A stretch of DNA of 64,000 bases from Leucoraja ocellata (lineage: Eukaryota): the NCBI GenBank assembly GCA_036785375.1, contig JAWMAR010000252.1:2666001-2730000 (forward strand), written 5' to 3'. This document shows, piece by piece, positions 13,032-52,725 of the stretch. A program made the translations under genes and the position numbers. Position 1 is the stretch's first letter, and every line of letters begins with the position of its first letter. Below the pieces are notes generated by a model. It was not told the origin of the DNA and made no database searches. It saw nothing but the letters and a program-made list of their open reading frames with translations.

Positions 13032-14635
13032 CAGTGCCCTACATAATGTTTGGGACAAAGACCCATCATTTATTTATTTGCCTCTGTACTCCACAATTTA
13101 AAATTTGTAATAGAAAAAAAATCACATGTGGTTAAAGTGCCCTTTGTCAGATTTTATTGCTGCTTGAAGTTTGCGATTCATGGACATCACCAGTTGCTGG
13201 TTTTCTTCTCTGGTGATGCTCTGCCAGGCCTGTATTGCAGCCATCTTTAGCTTGATTGTATTGGGGGCTAGTCCCCTTCAGTTTTCTCTTAATCATATAA
13301 AAGGCATGCCCAATTATGTTCAGATCGGGTGATTGACTTGGCCACTCACAAATTGACAATTTTTTAGCTTTGAAAAACTCCTTTGTTGCTTTTCAGATTC
13401 AGATTCAGATTCAGATTCAATTTTAATTGTCATTGTCAGTGTACAGTACAGAGACAACGAAATGCATTGCAGAGACAACGAAATGCTTTTGCTTTGGGAT
13501 CATTGTCTTGCTGTACAATGAACCAGCGGCCAATGCGTTTTGAAGCGTTTGTTTGAACTTGAGCAGATAGGGTGTGTTGAAACACTTCAAAATTCATTAT
13601 GCTACTACCATCAGCAGTTGTACCATCAGCAGTTGTATCATCAATGATAAGTGAGCCAGTACCATTAGCAGCCATACATTCCCAGGCCATAACACCCACA
13701 CCACTGTGTTTCACAGATTAGGTGGTATGTTTTGGATCTTGGGCAGTTCTTTTCTCTCCTCCATACTTTGCTCTTGCCATCACTCTGATATAAGTTAATC
13801 GTCATCAAGACACGGTTCACAAGACCTTTTTTTTCCCCAGAACTGTGGTTTCTCTTTTAAGTGCTTTTGGCAAAATGTAACCTGGCCATCCTATTTTTGC
13901 TCTAGCCAGTGGTTTGCATCTTGCAGTGTAGCCTTTGTACTTTTGCTGAAGAAGTCTTCTCCGGATAGTGGTCATTGACAAATCCACACTTGACTCCTGA
14001 AAGGTGTTTTTGATCTGTCGGACAGGTGTTTGGGGATTTTTCTTTATTATAATGAGAATTCTTCTGTCATTTATCAGCTATGGAGGTCTTCCTTGCCTGC
14101 CGGTCCCTTTGCGATTAGTATGCTCACCAGTGCTCTCTTTCTTCTTAATGATGTTGCAAACAGTTGATTTTGGTAAGCCTAAGATTTGACTGATGTCCCT
14201 AACAGTTTTATTCTTGTTTCTCAGTCTCATAATGGCTTCTTTGACTTTCATTGGCACAACTTTGGTCCTCATGTTGATAAACAGCAATAAAAGTTTCCAA
14301 AGGTAATGGAAAGACTGGAGGAAAGACTATGTACTGGGAACTCTCTTATACCTGCATTAAGGAGGCATTTAACACACCTGAGCAATTGCAAACACCTGTG
14401 AAACCATGTGTCCCTTACATTATGGTGCCCTGAAATGGGGGGACTATGTATAAACACAGCTGTAATTTCTACATGGTGAAACCAAAATGTATAAAAATGC
14501 TTTATACAACAATAAAATCTGACAATGTGCACTTGAACCACATGTGATTTTTTCTAGTAGAAATCTCAATTTGTGGAGTATAGAGGCAAATAAATAAATG
14601 ATGGGTCTTTGTCCCAACCATTATGGAGGGCACTG
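13032..14635 (-). mobile_element. Tc1/mariner transposon, defective (copy 1)
   Basis: TA-CAGTGCCCT...AGGGCACTG-TA termini; transposase motifs KHSGVGVMAW, QQDNDPK, WPSQSPDLN and an N-terminal HTH on the minus strand; frameshifts and a deletion in the left TIR. Confidence 0.92.
13393..13488 (-). mobile_element. Very short LINE 3' tail (Rex1/Babar-like, (TGAATC)n) inserted in Tc1
   Basis: (tcagat)n + ttttaattgtcattgtcagtgtacagtacagagacaacgaaatgc; same sequence as 48993-49053. Confidence 0.75.
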
Positions 14636-44466: not shown

Positions 44467-46519
44467 AGACAGATGGGACGAAGATTAACTTATATCAAAG
44501 TTATGGCACGAGCGAAGTATGGAGGAGAGAAAGAGCCCAAGATCCAAAGATTACCACCTCATCTGTAAAACACAGTGGTGGGAGTGTTATGGCCTGGGCA
44601 TGTTTGGCGATTTAAGGAATTCGCTCACTTATCTTCATTGATGATACAACTGCTAATGAATTCTTAAGTGTTTCGACACATCCTATCTGCTCAAGTTCAA
44701 ACAAATGCCTCAAACTCGTTGGCTGGCAGGTCATTCTACAGCAAGACCATGATCCCAAATATACTGCTAAAGCAACAAAGGAGTTTTTCAAAGCTAAAAA
44801 ATGGTAAATTCTTGAGTGGCCAAGTCAATCACCTGATCTGAACCCAATTGAGCATGCCTTTTATACGCTGAAGAGAAAACTGAAGGGGACTAGCCCCCAG
44901 AACAAGCATAAGTTAAAGATGGCTGCAATACAGGTCTGGCAAAGCATCACCTGAGAAGACACCCAGCAACTGGTGATGTCCATGAATCGCAGACTTCAAG
45001 CAGTCATTACGTGCAAAGGATATGCAACAAAATACTAAACATGACTACTTTCATTGACATGACATTACTGTGTCCCAAACATTATGGTGTCCTGAAATGG
45101 GGGACTATGTGTAAACACAGCTGTAAATTCTACATGGTGATACCAAAATGTATAAAAATGGCTTTTAATAAAATCTGACAATGTGCACTTTAACCATATG
45201 TGATTTTTTTTCTATTACAAATCTCAAATTGTGGAGTACAGAGGCATATAAATAAATGATGGGTCTTTGTCCCAAACATAATGGAGGGCACTGTATGTTA
45301 TGCCTGATGTCTATGTGGGTGGTTATCTATGCAGGTGGATAAGAACACCCTTGGGGAGGGTCCCTGAGTCCCATCGGAAATTCTGTGATTTGGGTTGAGT
45401 TAGTTATTTTGGATAGGTATCCATTGCTATCAAGCAACTAAGGAGTTCAACTCCACTGTATGAAAGAGCCATATTGCCGGATAGTTGGATTCATCTTGCC
45501 TGTTGAAGTTCCCTGCAGAAATGTGAACAATCTTGAGTTTTAAAACACACTGAAAACTGAAGACGTGTTCCGACCCGAAACGTCACCCATCCTTTTTCTT
45601 CAGAGATGCTGCCGGACGCGCTGAGTTTCTACAACACTTTGTGTCTATCTTGAGTTTTACATTTCTTGCTTTCCCAAGGGCAGCTGATTGCTCTGAAATA
45701 TTTACAACTTGCCTTATGTCAGCCTCTTTAACATTGAAACAAATGGCACTTCAGAGATGTACCAAAAGAAAGCAATTATCAGCTAAAGGACAGCTTCCTA
45801 AATGATTAGGCATTCCATCATCATCCTGTTTTCAGGTTAATTGAAATCCTATTGAAAATATGACAACAGTCTCCTTTTGTAATATTTTAGGTATGATTGA
45901 CTTTGAAAGGAACAGTTTGCAGCAATAGTAAATTTACTCAAATAAAAATATTAACAATGTAAAAACTAGTGCTTGGTTACATTTTTATTCCTACATTAGC
46001 AATGTAGAAATTAATAGTTTCATTTTCATTTTAGATTCTCTTTGTAAGCCACACTTGTTGCTGCAATTATCTTTAAACAAAGAAAGTACCGATTTCAGAT
46101 TTCGTTGGTGGGACCTTTTGTGCATTTTGTGACATGTTGTACTTTTTGGTGTGAACTGTTTCAGTTCAGAAGGGGGGGGGGGGGGGGGGTGGCCAACACA
46201 ACAATTAATTAATTACATACGCACAACAATTAAGCACAACCTTGTCAGTCGTGCATTCACAGGGGTTGAAAATGCAGAAGCCACTGCCAGTTGAACACAG
46301 ACACAGTCCATACTACTGGGATCAGATGTTGGAGGAGACTGTACCAGGTGCTACTATGACACCAACTGCCGTGAAGATTGAAGATTACTCCTGTTGGAGA
46401 CATCTGATACTGTAAATGGAGGAGAACCAAGAAAGGACAATGGGGCTATTGACCCTACTTTTTATCATGTGGTTGGCCCATGATGGGCTGGACTTGGGGA
46501 ACCACCCCTGCACCAAAAC

Positions 46520-46573
46520 ATCCTGAATAAGGTTGACAACTGTCCTTACGTTTATAACAATGACAAAGATGGA
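46520..46573 (+). pseudogene. Thrombospondin type-3 repeat fragment ([18 protein letters not shown])
   Basis: Matches the THBS1/2 DNCPYVYN.D repeat that lies upstream of the part found at 51274; short. Confidence 0.6.
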
Positions 46574-46594
46574 TCCATTGCCACAGGTTCTTGA

Positions 46595-46742
46595 AACAAC
46601 CATGAAAAGATGGCAGCTTATCCTGGAGCTACAGACCGAGCTGAAACAGAGGAGAAATGTGCTCACCAATGCCCAGTCTGAAAATGACCATCTTGTTTCC
46701 ATCACACAGCAGCTGAAGGAGAGCAATCAGGTTGTTGAGTTG
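46595..46742 (+). pseudogene. BICD2: BICD2 processed fragment (NHEKMAA / [40 protein letters not shown])
   Basis: Close match to recalled BICD2 NHKKVAA...[40 protein letters not shown], with an internal deletion. Confidence 0.85.
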
Positions 46743-46926
46743 AAAAACCTTGATTTTGGAGTGCAACTCAGTCACAGAACTGGATGGAGGTAATTCCCAG
46801 CCGGGATCAAAGTGAGGAGCTGAGTTGGGATGGATCAGACAACCAGTTGGCATTGATGGAGAAGTAAGAAAAATGCTGGTTTCACACGCTGATGGACAAC
46901 TTGGGAGGAAGAACAACTTGATTTGT

Positions 46927-47300
46927 GAAAAGCAACTACATTAGTGATGAATGTGGACAGACTTTCAAACAGCAGAAACACTTGTCAGTTCAACAAATGA
47001 GCCATACTGGAGCAAAACCTTTGCAGTGTGAAGTTTGTGGTTCCCAGTGCAGGCAGAGAGCATCCTTGAAATACCATATGACCAAGCACAAGGCAGAAGC
47101 CAAACTTGAATTTGCTTGTGACCAATGTGAGTAGCGGTTCGAGAAAGCTCACAATTTGAATGTTCATATGTCCATGGTTCATCCCTTGACCCAGAATACA
47201 GATAAAAACAAACCTATTGAAATTGAATCGTCAGCTAAGTATAGAAACATTAATTAAGCAGGAACCCAGTTAATAGTTATTCAACGGCTAAATGATGAGT
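46927..47300 (+). pseudogene. ZNF276: ZNF276 processed fragment, C-terminal zinc fingers
   Basis: NYISDECGQTFKQQKHL...GAKPLQCEVCG.QCRQRASLKYHMTKHKAE..LEFACDQCE*RFEKAHNLNVHMSMVHPLTQ; in-frame stop at 47131; no introns. Confidence 0.9.
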
Positions 47301-47543
47301 AAAGAATCTTGCACCCTTTTTCAATGTCAGCAAGACACAAAGGATTAGCATGAATAAATGCAATCAAGCCCGGCTCATCTCAAATAGGTAGAGCAATGGA
47401 AAGGTTAGTGTGGAGAATATAGTTCTGAGTATTATAACACACCAGTTAGAGAGACAAAGTCCAATGTCTGCAATAGGATAGAGGTGAATCAGGCAGAATC
47501 CTCGCAATTGGAAGGACTGTTCAGAACTCTGATAACAGAGGGC

Positions 47544-48348
47544 CAGTTACATCCTGGACATGCATTCAAGTCGCAGCATTGTTTTGAATGAGGGACAGTG
47601 CCCATCCAGTAGAATTAAGGACTCAATGGATGGTTCAATAACCCTTTCACCTTGGAATGGAACAGTGAGTTAAAATGGTGATGGTGATAATGTTGCGAAG
47701 CATCACCCTGTCCCAGTGTTAGCAGACTTTCAGTCTTGTACATAGAGTGGAGCCACTTCGCAGTCAGTGGATGTGGACAACTGGGAATCCCCATTGAAAA
47801 AGGATATGTTCTTGTGCTCAGATCCTGAATATACAGAGTATTCTTGAGAAAAAGTTCAGGTACAAGATGCAATTCAACCATTAAATGTGAAAAAAACAGT
47901 TAACTGCAATGAAGCAACTTTTCTATAAGAAACGATGTTATAGACAGATTGGAGTCCAGTGATCTTTCTGAAAGGTATTTATCAAGTGAAGATGACAGAG
48001 AAATAAAAGTTAAGAATGGCTCATCAGATGAGTCTTTTCAACCATATTGGAAGAAGAAGATTAAGTTACCAGTTAAGAAGTGCAATATTAAGGATGTGAA
48101 GATACAATCTGGACAAAAACGTGGCTGGAAACCAAAGTCAAACTTGGAAAGGGAAGATTTCCCCACCGTGTATCGATGTCAGTATAAGGGTTGCTGTGCT
48201 GTTTACAGAGGAGTTGACGGGCTTATGAAACGCATAAAAGAGCAGCAGGAAGAGGTGCGTGAAAGACCTTGCCCCACCCAGGATGTAACAAGGTGTTTCT
48301 GATTGATCGCTACCTGCAGCGCCATGTAAAGCTGATCCATACAGAAGA
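47544..48348 (+). pseudogene. ZNF276: ZNF276 processed fragment, middle region and first zinc fingers
   Basis: SDLSE...SSDESFQPY...EREDFPTVYRCQYKGCCAVYRGVDG...EEVRERPCP/HPGCNKVFLIDRYLQRHVKLIHTE with frameshifts; left edge approximate. Confidence 0.88.
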
Positions 48349-48432
48349 AAGAACATCTTTGCAGATCAGGAGGAAGTGCAAAGTTTTTGGTCACAACTTT
48401 GGAAAGACAAACCACATTTGATCAACAATCTT

Positions 48433-51149
48433 TATTTAAATCTTTTTATTTGAATTTCACAGCAATTTGCATACATACAATGATAACAGACAGTGACAGT
48501 CAAGGCATAATTGTGCAACAGTATGTAAGCGACCCTCAAAGCCCTTACCCTTGCCCACCTTCAACCCACCCGAATCGGGTCGGAACGAAACGGGGACAAA
48601 CAACACTCACATACGTACACATCCACACAAATATGGTAAGATAAACGAAACAAAAAGTACTAAAGAAAAAAAAAAAGAAAAAAAGGGGGGTCACTAATAA
48701 CAGCAAATAAGTAAGTAATTAAATTAATAAGGGTGGGGAGGGGGGGGGTTAAAGGGAGAGCAGCTGCAGTAGAGCAGAACAATGGTGGAGAGCACTGAGT
48801 TCTCTTCCGAGTCCGGGGACAAGTTGAGAGAGTTAACAAGTTCCAAGAAAGGGTTCCATGTATCTAGGAATGTCTTGGTAGAGCCTTTGAGAGAGAACCT
48901 AAGTTTTTCAAGCTTTAAATTGTAAAGCACCTCCTTCATCCAGCGGGCGTGTGTCGGGGGACAGGTGAGCCTCCAGTTAAGCAAGATCAGATGATTCAGA
49001 TTCAATTTTAATTGTCATTGTCAGTGTACAGTACAGAGACAACGAAATGCATTTTTCAATGTTTCCCATCTCTTCTTCAGTGATCCAAAATGCAAAGCTT
49101 TGGTCTGGGGTGTGTTTCTCGGAGATCTGCACCAGCTCTGATTTGTAAATCAACTTCTTCAACTCTTCTGTCGAAATCTTATCTGACTGTCCTTTAGCTT
49201 CCACCTTGAAGGATGACATTAAGTATCCAGTGTTGACTTTCTTGGTTTCACTGAAGTTTGGTTCAATCTCCACTCCATCAGAATCAAACTTTCTTTTGTG
49301 GATTTTCGTTGGCTTAATATACAGAATGAAGTAACGGTACTTACTGTCGGTCTCGTCCTCGATCTGATGCCGGGTCACCAGCAGTAGTTCCCCTTCCAGC
49401 ACCGCACCAGGACCACATGGTGTCCGTGTGGCGGTGGCGGTGGCCGGGGTCCAGCAGCCGGGGAGGCGGTGTCGATGCACCGGGTCGACCCGCAGCCGCT
49501 CGTCGCTGGGTTAACAAGGTTGTAAAAGCTAGGACCCGTTTCACCGCAACAGAGAGGTTGGTGTTGGGAGGGGTACCGGAAATGGCTGACAGTGGGTTTG
49601 GAGGAATAGCCTGGCCATAGGCTCTGCTTATCAAGTCGAAAGCACTCCTCCAAAAGGCTGCTAGCATCTGTTGCAGGTGTCCCTAACAGCGGGGTAAATT
49701 CTAGATAATCTTGCATTTGTGTAGTGGACTTTGTGAAGGACTTTGCATTGGATTAGGCCATGACGGGCACATATGGAGGAAGAATGGATCAAATCCAAGG
49801 CAGATTCCCATTGCTGGTCTGTTAGTTTCGTATTCAGCTCACCCTCCCACACAGCTTTTAATGAGGTATGAGGTTTCAATATAACCGACCCTAACAAGTT
49901 ATACAAAACAGAGATGCATTTCTTCCGGTTGGGATCTAGAGCTAACATGGTATTGGTCAGGGTTTCAGGGGGGCGATTTGGGAAATGGGGGAATGTCTTC
50001 TTCACAAAATCCCTAATCTGGAAAAAACGAAAAAGGTGGGAGTTTGGGAGGCTGTAGTTGGACGAGAGCTCCGCAAAGGACGAAAAGATGTCATCCTTGT
50101 ATAGGTTTTTGATACTACTGATACCGTTGCTGTGCCAGGTTTTGAATGCGGGGTCTGTACTTGAAGGTTTAAAGATGTGGTTTTTAAGCAGTGGGGTCAA
50201 GATGGAAGGGCCTTGTAAACCAAAGTTTTTCCTGAGTTGACTCCATATCTTGAGCGAGAGGGACGCAATTGGGCCTGCACCCACAGATGTTATAGGAAGG
50301 GGGAGTTGGGAGCATAGGACAGACCGCAACGGAAGACGTGAACTCGCCTTTTCCATGTGTACCCAGGTCGGTAGGTGGTCGCAATCATCATTCATCCAAT
50401 ACAGGAGTTTTTGCAAGTTAACTGCCCAATAGTATCGCCTAAAGTCAGGAAGTGCCAAACCGCCGTCACTCTTAGGAGACTGCAGTATCGCCTTTCGGAT
50501 TCTAGCCGGTTTGCTACCCCATAAAAATTTAGATATTGTCCTTTCTAATTTATCAAAAAAAAGATTTAGTGATAAGTATAGGGACGTGCTGGAAAAGATA
50601 CAGGAATTTGGGTAGGACAACCATCTTGACCAGATTTATCCGGCCCACGAGGGATAGCGGTAAAACTGACCGGCGGTCAAAATCTCTTTCGGCTTTCTCA
50701 ACCAGAGGCAGAAAGTTTGTGCGGAACATATCAGATAAGGGTGTTGTGATAAAAACGCCGAGGTAGCAAAACCCGTCCTCTGCCCATTTGAATGAGGTTA
50801 AAGAGCGAGGGAGCTGCTTAGCCAATGAGTTAATCGGTAATAGCTCACTCTTTTGGTAGTTCCAGTTTGGTGAACGCTGCATTGAATTCTGCCAGTAGCG
50901 ATATCTTGTGCTCTGTTAACATGGCTGCTAGCGTGGCCACGCCGGTGCTGGTCGTCGGGTGTTCCGTCTTTTGCTCCTCTTTCTTTCCTCTGCCTGGCAT
51001 CTTTATGGCGTGGAGAGGTGCTGTCAATAGTGTTTAAATATTTATGGGTAGTTATAAAACTTAGGCTGAGCTATAATAAAAGTTGGAGGTGAACAGGTCG
51101 GGAGCGTGGAAAAGTGCGACTGCTCCAACATGTCGCCCCCAGCGGGTCT
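48433..51149 (-). mobile_element. Internally deleted L1-clade LINE (5'UTR + ORF1 start fused to the C-terminal half of ORF2 + 3'UTR)
   Basis: 16-bp TSD TTTGATCAACAATCTT (48417-48432 / 51150-51165); ORF2 motifs YLGV, LSLVGRINLVKMVVLPKFLYLFQ, GGLALPDF..YYWA, C..C; AATAAA near the 3' end. Confidence 0.92.
49055..49508 (-). pseudogene. ARPIN: ARPIN processed cDNA fragment (about residues 6-150), fused 3' to a LINE tail
   Basis: RLPGCW.PA...GAVLEGELL.VTRH...RYFILYIKP..IHKRKFDSDGVEIEPNFSETKKVNTGYLMSSFKVEAKGQSD...FAFW matches recalled Arpin; open frame, no introns. Confidence 0.92.
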
Positions 51150-51273
51150 TTTGATCAACAATCTTGAAGCATTTTGAGCTCTATCGTATGATCAAGGGTC
51201 TAGAAAGAGAGAAGCTGAACATTTTGAAACAGATGGACCTCTTGAAAGAGATTCCAGGAAGATAATCTCAAAG

Positions 51274-52027
51274 CTGGTGGGGAATCAGTGTGATGACATT
51301 CAGCACATTGATGAGGATGGCAATGATGGTGTTTCTGATGAGAAGGACTATTGCCGTTTTGTTCCCAACCCTGACCAGATCGATGCCGATGGTAACAGCA
51401 GAGGAGACAACTGCAAGGACGACTTTGACAACAACATCCCAGATATCTATGACGTGTGCCCCGAGAACAGCGCCATCAGTGAGACTGATCTGAGGATGTT
51501 TCAAAGGGGACGATGCAGATCGTTCCTAACTGGGTAGTGCCCAACAAGGGCAGGGAGTAACTGCAGACCGCCAACTCTGACCCTGGCCTTGCTGTCGGAT
51601 TTGAGGAGTTCAACGCTATCAACTTCAGTGGCACCTTCTAGATCAACACAGACTACAATCTACGCTGGCTTTGTCTTTGGCTTCCAGTCCAGCAGAGGCT
51701 TCTACGTGGTGATGTGGAAACAGGCCATCCAAACCTACTAGGAGAAACTGTCCAAACTCCTGGATATGCTAGCGTCTAGATCAAGGTGATGAACCCCACC
51801 ACAGGAGGAAAGTGGAGTGGAGGGGAGGGGAGTGGAGAGGGGGGGGGGGGGGGGGTGGAGTGGAGAGCACCTCACCTGTGCAACGATCTATGAAGAGAAT
51901 AGCAACACCCTCGGACAGGTGCAAACTTTATGGCACAACCCCTTTCGGCTGAAAGGATTACACCCCCTACAGGTGGCACCTGATCCATTGACCCTAAACA
52001 AGCTTCATCGGGATGGTTGTCAATGAA
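51274..52027 (+). pseudogene. THBS2: Thrombospondin-2-like (subgroup A) processed fragment: type-3 repeats + C-terminal L-lectin domain
   Basis: LVGNQCD...[90 protein letters not shown]; stops and deletions; no introns; THBS1 vs THBS2 not certain. Confidence 0.85.
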
Positions 52028-52154
52028 GAGAATGAGAACTGGTTGCCATACCATTGGTTTGATGGACTTTGGGGTACTGTGATACATTATGGCTCTATCA
52101 TTCAGCTAATCATTTCTCTAATACTTGCGACCAGTGTGTGTACCTACCGAGGAC
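52028..52154 (+). mobile_element. Candidate retroviral env TM-subunit remnant + PPT remnant
   Basis: ENENWLPYHWFDGLWGTVIHYGSIIQLIISLILATSVC: Trp-rich juxtamembrane segment plus hydrophobic anchor; GAGGAC immediately before the TG of the candidate LTR. Confidence 0.5.
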
Positions 52155-52725
52155 TGTGAATGTTATCATTTTTGATAAAAATGAGGGCATGAAAGAGCTA
52201 ATAGTCAAATCTAAAATGGAGTCGTTCTTCTACAAACGCATGGTCTAGCAAAACAAAAGAATTGCTCGGTGCCAAGTCTGAATGACATTGTAAATTATGT
52301 GGAACACAATATGGAGGACGTTGTCTTTTTAATAAAGAAATTAAGATGGGATCCTGCAGTAATAACATGTGCTTCTTCAAGGCCATAAAGAAGCCAAGAT
52401 TGAAAAAAATAGCTGACGCCCTAGAGATAAGTAATAACTTGTTATTGGATGAGCTGATTTAGACCCAGCTTTACTATATTGTGAAAGGCTACAGAATCTT
52501 TCAGTCATGCCATATTCAGACTTGGTCGGTGTTTTACTGATAAAAAAAATGTATAATTGTGCTCACTCGCCTTTGTTTTTTGAGTGGGAGCACGAGAAGC
52601 ACTGAGCACTGTATTTGCTCATTGTAATCTTGCCACTTCCGTCTGACGAATCAATTAAAGATTGCCAATTCTTTCAAACCTTCAACGTTTGTTGCTATCT
52701 GCTTTTTAAGAAACAAACTTTCACA
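52155..52725 (+). mobile_element. Candidate 3' LTR (571 bp)
   Basis: TGTGAATGTT...AACTTTCACA termini (9/10 inverted match, TG..CA); TATAA at 52552, hairpin 52559-52593, ATTAAA at 52654, in U3-R-U5 order; no partner LTR found. Confidence 0.55.

Follow-up and report, generated by a model that had tools for sequence, protein, structure and literature searches.

A spliced ARPIN mRNA fragment joined to the 3' tail of a non-L1, probably Rex1/Babar-like LINE within an L1 copy of Leucoraja ocellata

The window analysed here is a 64,000-nucleotide stretch of the Leucoraja ocellata genome (GenBank assembly GCA_036785375.1, contig JAWMAR010000252.1, positions 2,666,001 to 2,730,000), and its minus strand encodes ARPIN at 49508-49056 (Pfam PF10574, E 3e-52). 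Both the Pfam match and alignment to the parent gene identify this 453-nt copy as a fragment of spliced mRNA, consisting of part of exon 1, exons 2 and 3, and the first 151 nt of exon 4 (joined pieces of 93, 76, 133 and 151 nt), from which the three GT-AG introns of the parent (858, 594 and 2714 nt) are missing. Searching the 3.44-Gb assembly at the DNA level, we obtained nine ARPIN matches: the window copy, which is the only intronless one among them, and four exons each at C421 and C780, which are probably two haplotypes of the ARPIN parent. The copy has three mismatches to C421 and six to C780, and two of its changes are private. The original prediction for this DNA, made from the letters alone, had described an open, intronless ARPIN segment lacking its 3' end. 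The intronless structure and the 3' truncation are borne out, as the copy ends in the middle of exon 4, 56 nt short of the donor and at no splice site, but the 5' end is truncated as well, starting 14 nt past the A of the parent ATG, and there is neither a 3' UTR nor a poly(A). The segment is open in the ARPIN frame, but this frame lacks its own start codon and does not continue the reading frame of L1 ORF2, which has a break further upstream. The ARPIN copy is a dead pseudogene with no evident function.

The host of this fragment is an L1 copy on the same strand (48420..51165, minus), which served as a passive target. In it, a 5' stub is followed directly by the RT/C-terminal part of ORF2 and an A-rich end; the copy is bounded by its own TSD of ~15 bp and is 96-99% like other copies. 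Within it, the 5' UTR/ORF1 stub runs straight into the RT region and there is a further deletion of ~48 bp (~50861 and ~49660), the latter seen in none of the 19 other L1 copies that were fetched. At the 5' junction of the insert (49509..49520, minus) the L1 target reads ...CCTTGTTAACC, with about 1 nt of microhomology, and the empty L1 site, in register in 7 of the 19 copies, reads CCTTGTTAGCCCGGAGACTGATCTTG. Because the left flank ends in ...TTAACC and the right flank restarts with CTGATC, 5 bp (GGAGA) have been lost and no TSD was made; the same five letters bridge the gap in reads of other L1 copies. The insert therefore interrupts the L1 without a TSD, as had been predicted, with 5 bp replaced relative to the empty site. 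There is no TSD that encloses ARPIN and tail together, and the hallmarks of L1 insertion (poly(A), a TSD of 7-20 bp, TT/AAAA target) are absent from this GC-rich target. We also considered that the insert might be common to an L1 subfamily, and rejected this: none of the 19 fetched copies carries ARPIN and the genome holds one retrocopy, so the check that the prediction had proposed leaves the retrocopy unique.

Between ARPIN and the resumed L1 lies a mini-tail of about 60 nt (48993..49053, minus), which starts at the motif AATGCAT, contains a predicted stem-loop (z -2.5) and ends in a (GAATCT)n terminal repeat. It is joined to ARPIN by a linker of one or two A residues (49054..49055, minus): by comparison with the parent and with the native LINE context GATGCTAAATGCAT, one A is absent from both templates, and the other is either native to the LINE or added. 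From 49054/49053 to 48993 the tail matches the 3' terminus of a LINE base for base, in agreement with the predicted direct join to a ~60-nt tail. At the 3' junction (48987..48992, minus) the tail terminates as GAATC-ATCTGA, in which ATCTGA is a slipped tail repeat; its CTGA is common to the L1 target, and L1 resumes at 48990. Such sharing is expected for priming on a terminal repeat and is established for L2 in the relevant passages of PMC4476161.

Read data bear on whether this arrangement is real. Contigs from run X1 cross the L1-ARPIN junction (depth 9.5 versus ~20 on exons) and the exon junctions, with the proviso that X1 is possibly the assembly's own source and hence not independent. Run X9, from another sample in the study of X1, covers the junction of exons 3 and 4, though at a low relative depth. 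Long contigs of X18 (organism B) pass unbroken from single exons into introns, so that no retrocopy is seen in that run; an RNA run from organism B has parent-type ARPIN reads only and is uninformative on the retrocopy. Together the read data fit a single-copy, young, probably polymorphic insertion. No contig among the pieces shown crosses the ARPIN-tail junction, as might be expected if that junction were an assembly error, but the X1 contigs across the L1-ARPIN and exon junctions and the X9 contig across an exon junction speak against this. An exonised tail, spliced into an ARPIN transcript, fares no better: the tail has no match in 30 kb of both parent loci, the break in exon 4 lacks a donor and the tail start lacks an acceptor. 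We regard either of these readings as very improbable. The prediction had itself named beforehand, as findings that would overturn it, an exonised tail and a segment drawn from a single parent exon; both fail, because the segment spans four exons with their introns removed and the parents lack the tail.

What kind of element donated the tail? An RT frame lies upstream of the tail in other copies of the LINE, and 7 of the first 30 tail loci extend upstream into it. One longer copy has a 759-aa frame with RVT_1 and PF09004, a domain we take to be associated with Rex/Babar, and with an endonuclease part read by eye. The RT has 24-28% identity to L1- and CR1-like RT pieces of the fetched loci and 49-55% to other members of its type. 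Its best named relatives (76-83%) are in ray-finned fish, and no match among its relatives is named Rex1. As DNA, the published Rex1 primers match the LINE no better than chance, but as peptides their sites are recognisable (FSSAFNT/YSSAFNT and SRLFLLR/QRLFFLR) and lie ~570 bp apart, compared with a published amplicon of ~550 bp. The 3' UTR is followed by (GAATCT)n, a 6-nt tandem repeat, as Rex1 3' UTRs are followed by 5-7-nt tandem repeats (PMC4635592); published descriptions of Rex1/Babar give a remnant of AP endonuclease plus RT, a 6-nt tandem repeat end and frequent 5' truncation (parts of PMC6274825 and PMC4635592). The predicted origin of the tail from a non-L1 LINE with Rex1/Babar features is thus upheld by the RT, PF09004 and the 6-nt repeat. 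Because the case rests on relatives, the terminal repeat and primer sites that match as peptides but not as DNA, we call the donor likely Rex1/Babar-like, short of proof against reference elements.

The exact 45-mer of the tail occurs 15,743 times genome-wide, and an Rfam search of the LINE 3' UTR for a ribozyme gave no match. By eye, a SINE ending in the LINE tail accounts for 15 of 18 hits. The SINE copies (L164-L169 and L173-L181) have a tRNA-like head, a core that is presumably V-SINE-like, and a LINE tail with (TTTCA)n repeats; this is likely the partner SINE of a sister LINE subfamily. A stem-loop and a tail-sharing SINE are marks of a tail-recognising (stringent) LINE, and on these sequence features we predict that the donor is one.

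The point at which the tail starts is not arbitrary. Nine of 30 unselected tails (the first 30, on contig C1) are 54-61 nt long and the others range from 162 to >1,500 nt, an excess with p 1.5e-14 against uniform truncation and 4e-6 against a 5% prior. With one partial pattern we count 4,202 mini-tail copies with non-native upstream sequence. Exactly one native base precedes ATGCAT in 52 of 70 pattern-selected copies, a figure that is conditional because the pattern leaves out shorter tails. The ARPIN junction falls on AATGCAT, the commonest mini-tail start, and the base preceding it is mildly skewed across loci (T24, C17, A15, G11). The sequence around this hotspot is predicted to form a hairpin, GAGAUGC-UAAAU-GCAUUUC, immediately before the stem-loop, with the hotspot in its loop; the hairpin is a weak prediction, since shuffled sequences fold as well as the whole 116-nt 3' region does (z -0.8). 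Mini-tails have TSDs of 4-9 nt, and many bear extra sequence copied from their flanks. At 29 of 126 distinct loci an extra copy of the tail's first 12-19 nt stands in front, and tandem copies of the first 16-17 nt are found four times at L163 (C2:23484179) and twice at L161, which reflects iterative re-copying of one short template. The window itself holds a second mini-tail (13408-13468, minus), placed in a Tc1-like transposon and with a ~17-nt head duplicate in front. At L132 and L172, paired tails are inverted, back to back or head to head.

A second RNA has been fused to the same tail. Locus L193 (C132:1496818-1496922, plus) consists of a near full-length U6, a 17-nt tail duplicate and a mini-tail, all enclosed by a 6-bp TSD (AAATCT), and is an independent tripartite chimera of the LINE that supplied the ARPIN tail. 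With RNA-derived parts on both sides of the duplicate, the order of events is most simply that of first-strand synthesis: tail, jump, fragment, jump, U6. L193 is the only match genome-wide to the exact U6-tail junction pattern. By eye, ~27 of 40 U6 loci (40 of the 48 scored matches) have A-rich tails of L1 type, and given these copies L1 is active in this genome.

We consider it fairly probable that the ARPIN chimera arose in one LINE-driven event, by priming on the tail followed by serial first-strand template jumps. The LINE protein would have nicked the L1 copy, and, judging from the 3' junction, the (GAATCT)n end of the LINE's own RNA would have primed through the CTGA microhomology. About 60 nt would then have been copied up to AATGCAT, where copying of this LINE appears to end very often (seen here as a length mode only), perhaps at a cut RNA end or at a hard RT stop imposed by the upstream hairpin. 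After addition of one or two T to the cDNA, the RT may have jumped onto an ARPIN mRNA that had been spliced and was already broken, taking up its free 3' end (…UUGA); once 453 nt of ARPIN had been copied, end-joining would have attached the cDNA end to the target at the cost of 5 bp. The product would be a processed pseudogene made without poly(A) recognition and probably still polymorphic. What we observe directly is the spliced cargo, the sense fusion, the tail identity, the hotspot, the target deletion and the second chimera. In favour of a single event, ARPIN is spliced, in sense, flush with the tail and broken away from any splice site, and both parts appear very young, the tail matching its family and ARPIN having two private changes. 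The prediction that a tail-primed RT jumped onto ARPIN mRNA thus gains an independent U6 chimera with the same 5' junction, while the jump itself is what we infer. R2 RT in vitro makes serial jumps onto RNA 3' ends and jumps with a +1T overhang onto a 3'-A, as parts of a preprint report (bioRxiv 10.1101/2021.04.30.442027). Against a single event, the mRNA case is single and so is the U6-tail junction for the exact pattern. RTs favour purine addition to cDNA, and the linker is A in sense (T on the cDNA), which also counts against it.

Another difficulty for a single event is that TGA closes the ARPIN segment and the L1 sequence restarts with CTGA, which allows TGA to be taken for a 3-nt TSD left by a tail that inserted later. 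An ARPIN cDNA truncated at both ends might have entered L1 through TGA microhomology, with entry by L1 internal priming or RNA-templated break repair both possible, and a mini-tail might later have hit that very junction and duplicated the TGA. TGA does stand on both sides of the tail, mini-tails number in the thousands and have 4-9-nt TSDs, L1 is active as judged from the A-rich U6 loci, and the ARPIN 5' end resembles the target (CAGCGAC versus CGGAGAC). However, the probability of finding a tail in the same sense at any one base is 2.3e-6 (for each orientation), and even a 10-base window with an assumed 30-fold site preference leaves it below 1e-3 per retrocopy. ARPIN and tail look equally young, and the U6 chimera shows that one-step fusion happens. 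Two separate insertions therefore seem quite improbable to us.

We give similarly little credence to a single event completed by repair, in which copying at the nick produced the tail, and a separate ARPIN cDNA, or copying by polymerase theta, patched the 5' gap as a 5' extra of unusual length. Many mini-tails here do bear flank-copied extras, and stringent LINEs commonly leave extra nucleotides at their 5' ends and delete target bases (passages of PMC4245944 and PMC4760211), but repair of this kind requires a free sense ARPIN cDNA without a priming site. Twin priming would predict antisense cargo, and ARPIN and U6 are both in the same sense as the tail.

It is also conceivable, if unlikely, that the two RNAs were ligated first, a cut ARPIN fragment being joined by RtcB-type ligation to a LINE tail RNA cut in its loop and the product then retrotransposed as one template. 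RtcB-type ligation has reportedly been proposed for U6/L1. A fixed tail start within a predicted hairpin loop is what a nuclease cut would leave, but the fold is no better than that of shuffles, and one A or more at the ARPIN-tail junction is untemplated. Two ligations would be required at L193 and four at L163, and the tandem duplicates would go unexplained. For sense chimeras in general, ligation is a recognised route (according to parts of PMC13174262).

Returning to serial template jumping, we speculate, more tentatively, that the LINE may routinely carry a processed tail RNA of ~60 nt, which is cleaved within the hairpin loop, protected by the bound RT, and acts as a portable priming adapter; having copied it, the RT would pass end-to-end onto whatever free RNA 3' ends are close by. 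The acceptors would be the LINE's own 12-19-nt fragments, U6, and mRNA decay intermediates. If so, the mini-tails, in their thousands, would be a mobile class of their own, and the genome would hold tens to low hundreds of gene fragments that lack poly(A) and carry this tail.

Having one mRNA chimera, we asked how many others there are. We took 141 mini-tail loci (23 query-like, 9 unbiased, 70 of 100 from a first pattern, and 40 of 90 from a second pattern that were coding-like by eye, less naming overlaps), of which 7 went unparsed and 126 are distinct, and scanned 66 plus 23 frames abutting mini-tail junctions with Pfam. This check of tail-adjacent sequence for host coding sequence, proposed with the original prediction, turned up no second mRNA chimera among the 126 distinct loci, in a screen blind to cargo that is UTR-only, shorter than ~50 codons or without a Pfam domain. 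Zero of 126 is compatible with up to roughly 2-3% of several thousand mini-tails. Three candidates were set aside as genomic exons beside an ordinary insertion: Ion_trans at L107 and a CD20-like frame at L299, which have acceptor sites, and HLH at L133, which has collinear flanks. At L299 (C91:6208370-6208960) the mini-tail lies ~20 nt past the stop codon of the CD20-family gene, presumably sarcospan-like, and so in its 3' UTR. None of 18 hits with an A-run plus tail is a poly(A) mRNA joined to the tail. With GTP_EFTU as retrocopy bait we obtained 53 exon-sized matches (78 of 107 candidates scored), none of them a long intronless elongation-factor copy, and found no tail at 30 loci; the missing intronless copy hints that mRNA retrocopies are scarce, though poly(A) copies of U6 are common. 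The LINE-tail route to mRNA copies looks rare and clearly minor beside L1.

Several of these features have precedents. U6-L2, U6-Mon1 and U6-RTE chimeras have been described in platypus and Anolis and attributed to proposed template switching (Doucet et al. 2015, PMC4476161), and 27.5% of the platypus U6-L2 chimeras are without a TSD in the parts of that paper drawn on here. The ARPIN copy resembles them in placing a sense cellular RNA 5' of a short piece of a (predicted) stringent non-L1 LINE, with small or no TSD and apparent priming on a simple terminal repeat. Unlike them, its cargo is a spliced protein-coding mRNA broken at both ends, its LINE is Rex1/Babar-like, and its start base is fixed and common to thousands of solo mini-tails. 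It is also no textbook member of the 5'-RNA/3'-LINE class, because no TSD encloses both parts. Human mRNA/LINE-1 5' chimeras, of which 17 cases are given, the majority of the sense ones terminating at a splice site (Law and Burns 2026, PMC13174262), likewise have mRNA exons 5' of a LINE in one insertion, but as far as the accessible parts of that paper go they involve long L1s and cis or trans splicing, whereas ARPIN has a mid-exon break and a 60-nt non-L1 tail. The Magnaporthe MINE and tripartite chimeras show switch hotspots, double jumps and hairpins that precede the sites of switching (Gogvadze et al. 2007, PMC2104539). They share with our element a non-L1 LINE with hotspots and double jumps, but in the portions of that report considered here their cargo is non-coding RNA or SINE and their LINE pieces span 230-5461 nt over 28 sites, in contrast to one dominant ~60-nt end. 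Compared with processed pseudogenes made by L1, the ARPIN copy is similarly intronless and 5'-truncated, but it has no poly(A), 3' UTR or TSD, and has a target deletion and a LINE tail at its 3' end.

U6 template switching by stringent LINEs (PMC4476161, in part) and mRNA/L1 chimeras are thus already known; the protein-coding cargo, the Rex1/Babar-like driver, the fixed 60-nt adapter-like tail and the hotspot are new. We found neither a spliced-mRNA chimera with a non-L1 LINE nor a Rex1 mini-tail class in the open-access literature, and supplements, Repbase reports and subscription papers could hold cases. The portions of the Rex1/Babar papers cited here (PMC6274825, PMC4635592) do not mention mini-tails as a discrete class that shows tandem duplication of the head and bears RNA cargo. 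Few or no mRNA retrocopies are expected from LINEs that recognise their tail, CR1 among them, and the makers of retrocopies outside mammals are described as an open question in reviews (PMC5470649, PMC4476161 and PMC3747384, each in part). In that setting, the ARPIN locus offers a clean, very young spliced mRNA carried by what we predict to be a tail-recognising LINE, and a signature, an mRNA fragment followed by an AATGCAT mini-tail, that can be searched for elsewhere. With its fixed start, tandem head duplications and tripartite U6 copy, this genome may be read as a natural record of serial template jumping, a step that has been proposed for the birth of SINEs and that is biochemically testable.

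The neighbourhood of the locus contains other gene pieces. The host L1 is surrounded (window ~46200-52400) by a dispersed element found in at least 40 places at 87-92% identity, whose copies (L229-L239) contain scrambled, intronless pieces of zinc-finger, BicD and thrombospondin-repeat sequence, which we take to be ZNF276, BICD and THBS. Copies of this element reach further upstream, where an integrase-like stretch can be made out by eye, and LTR-type mRNA capture is a possible origin for it.
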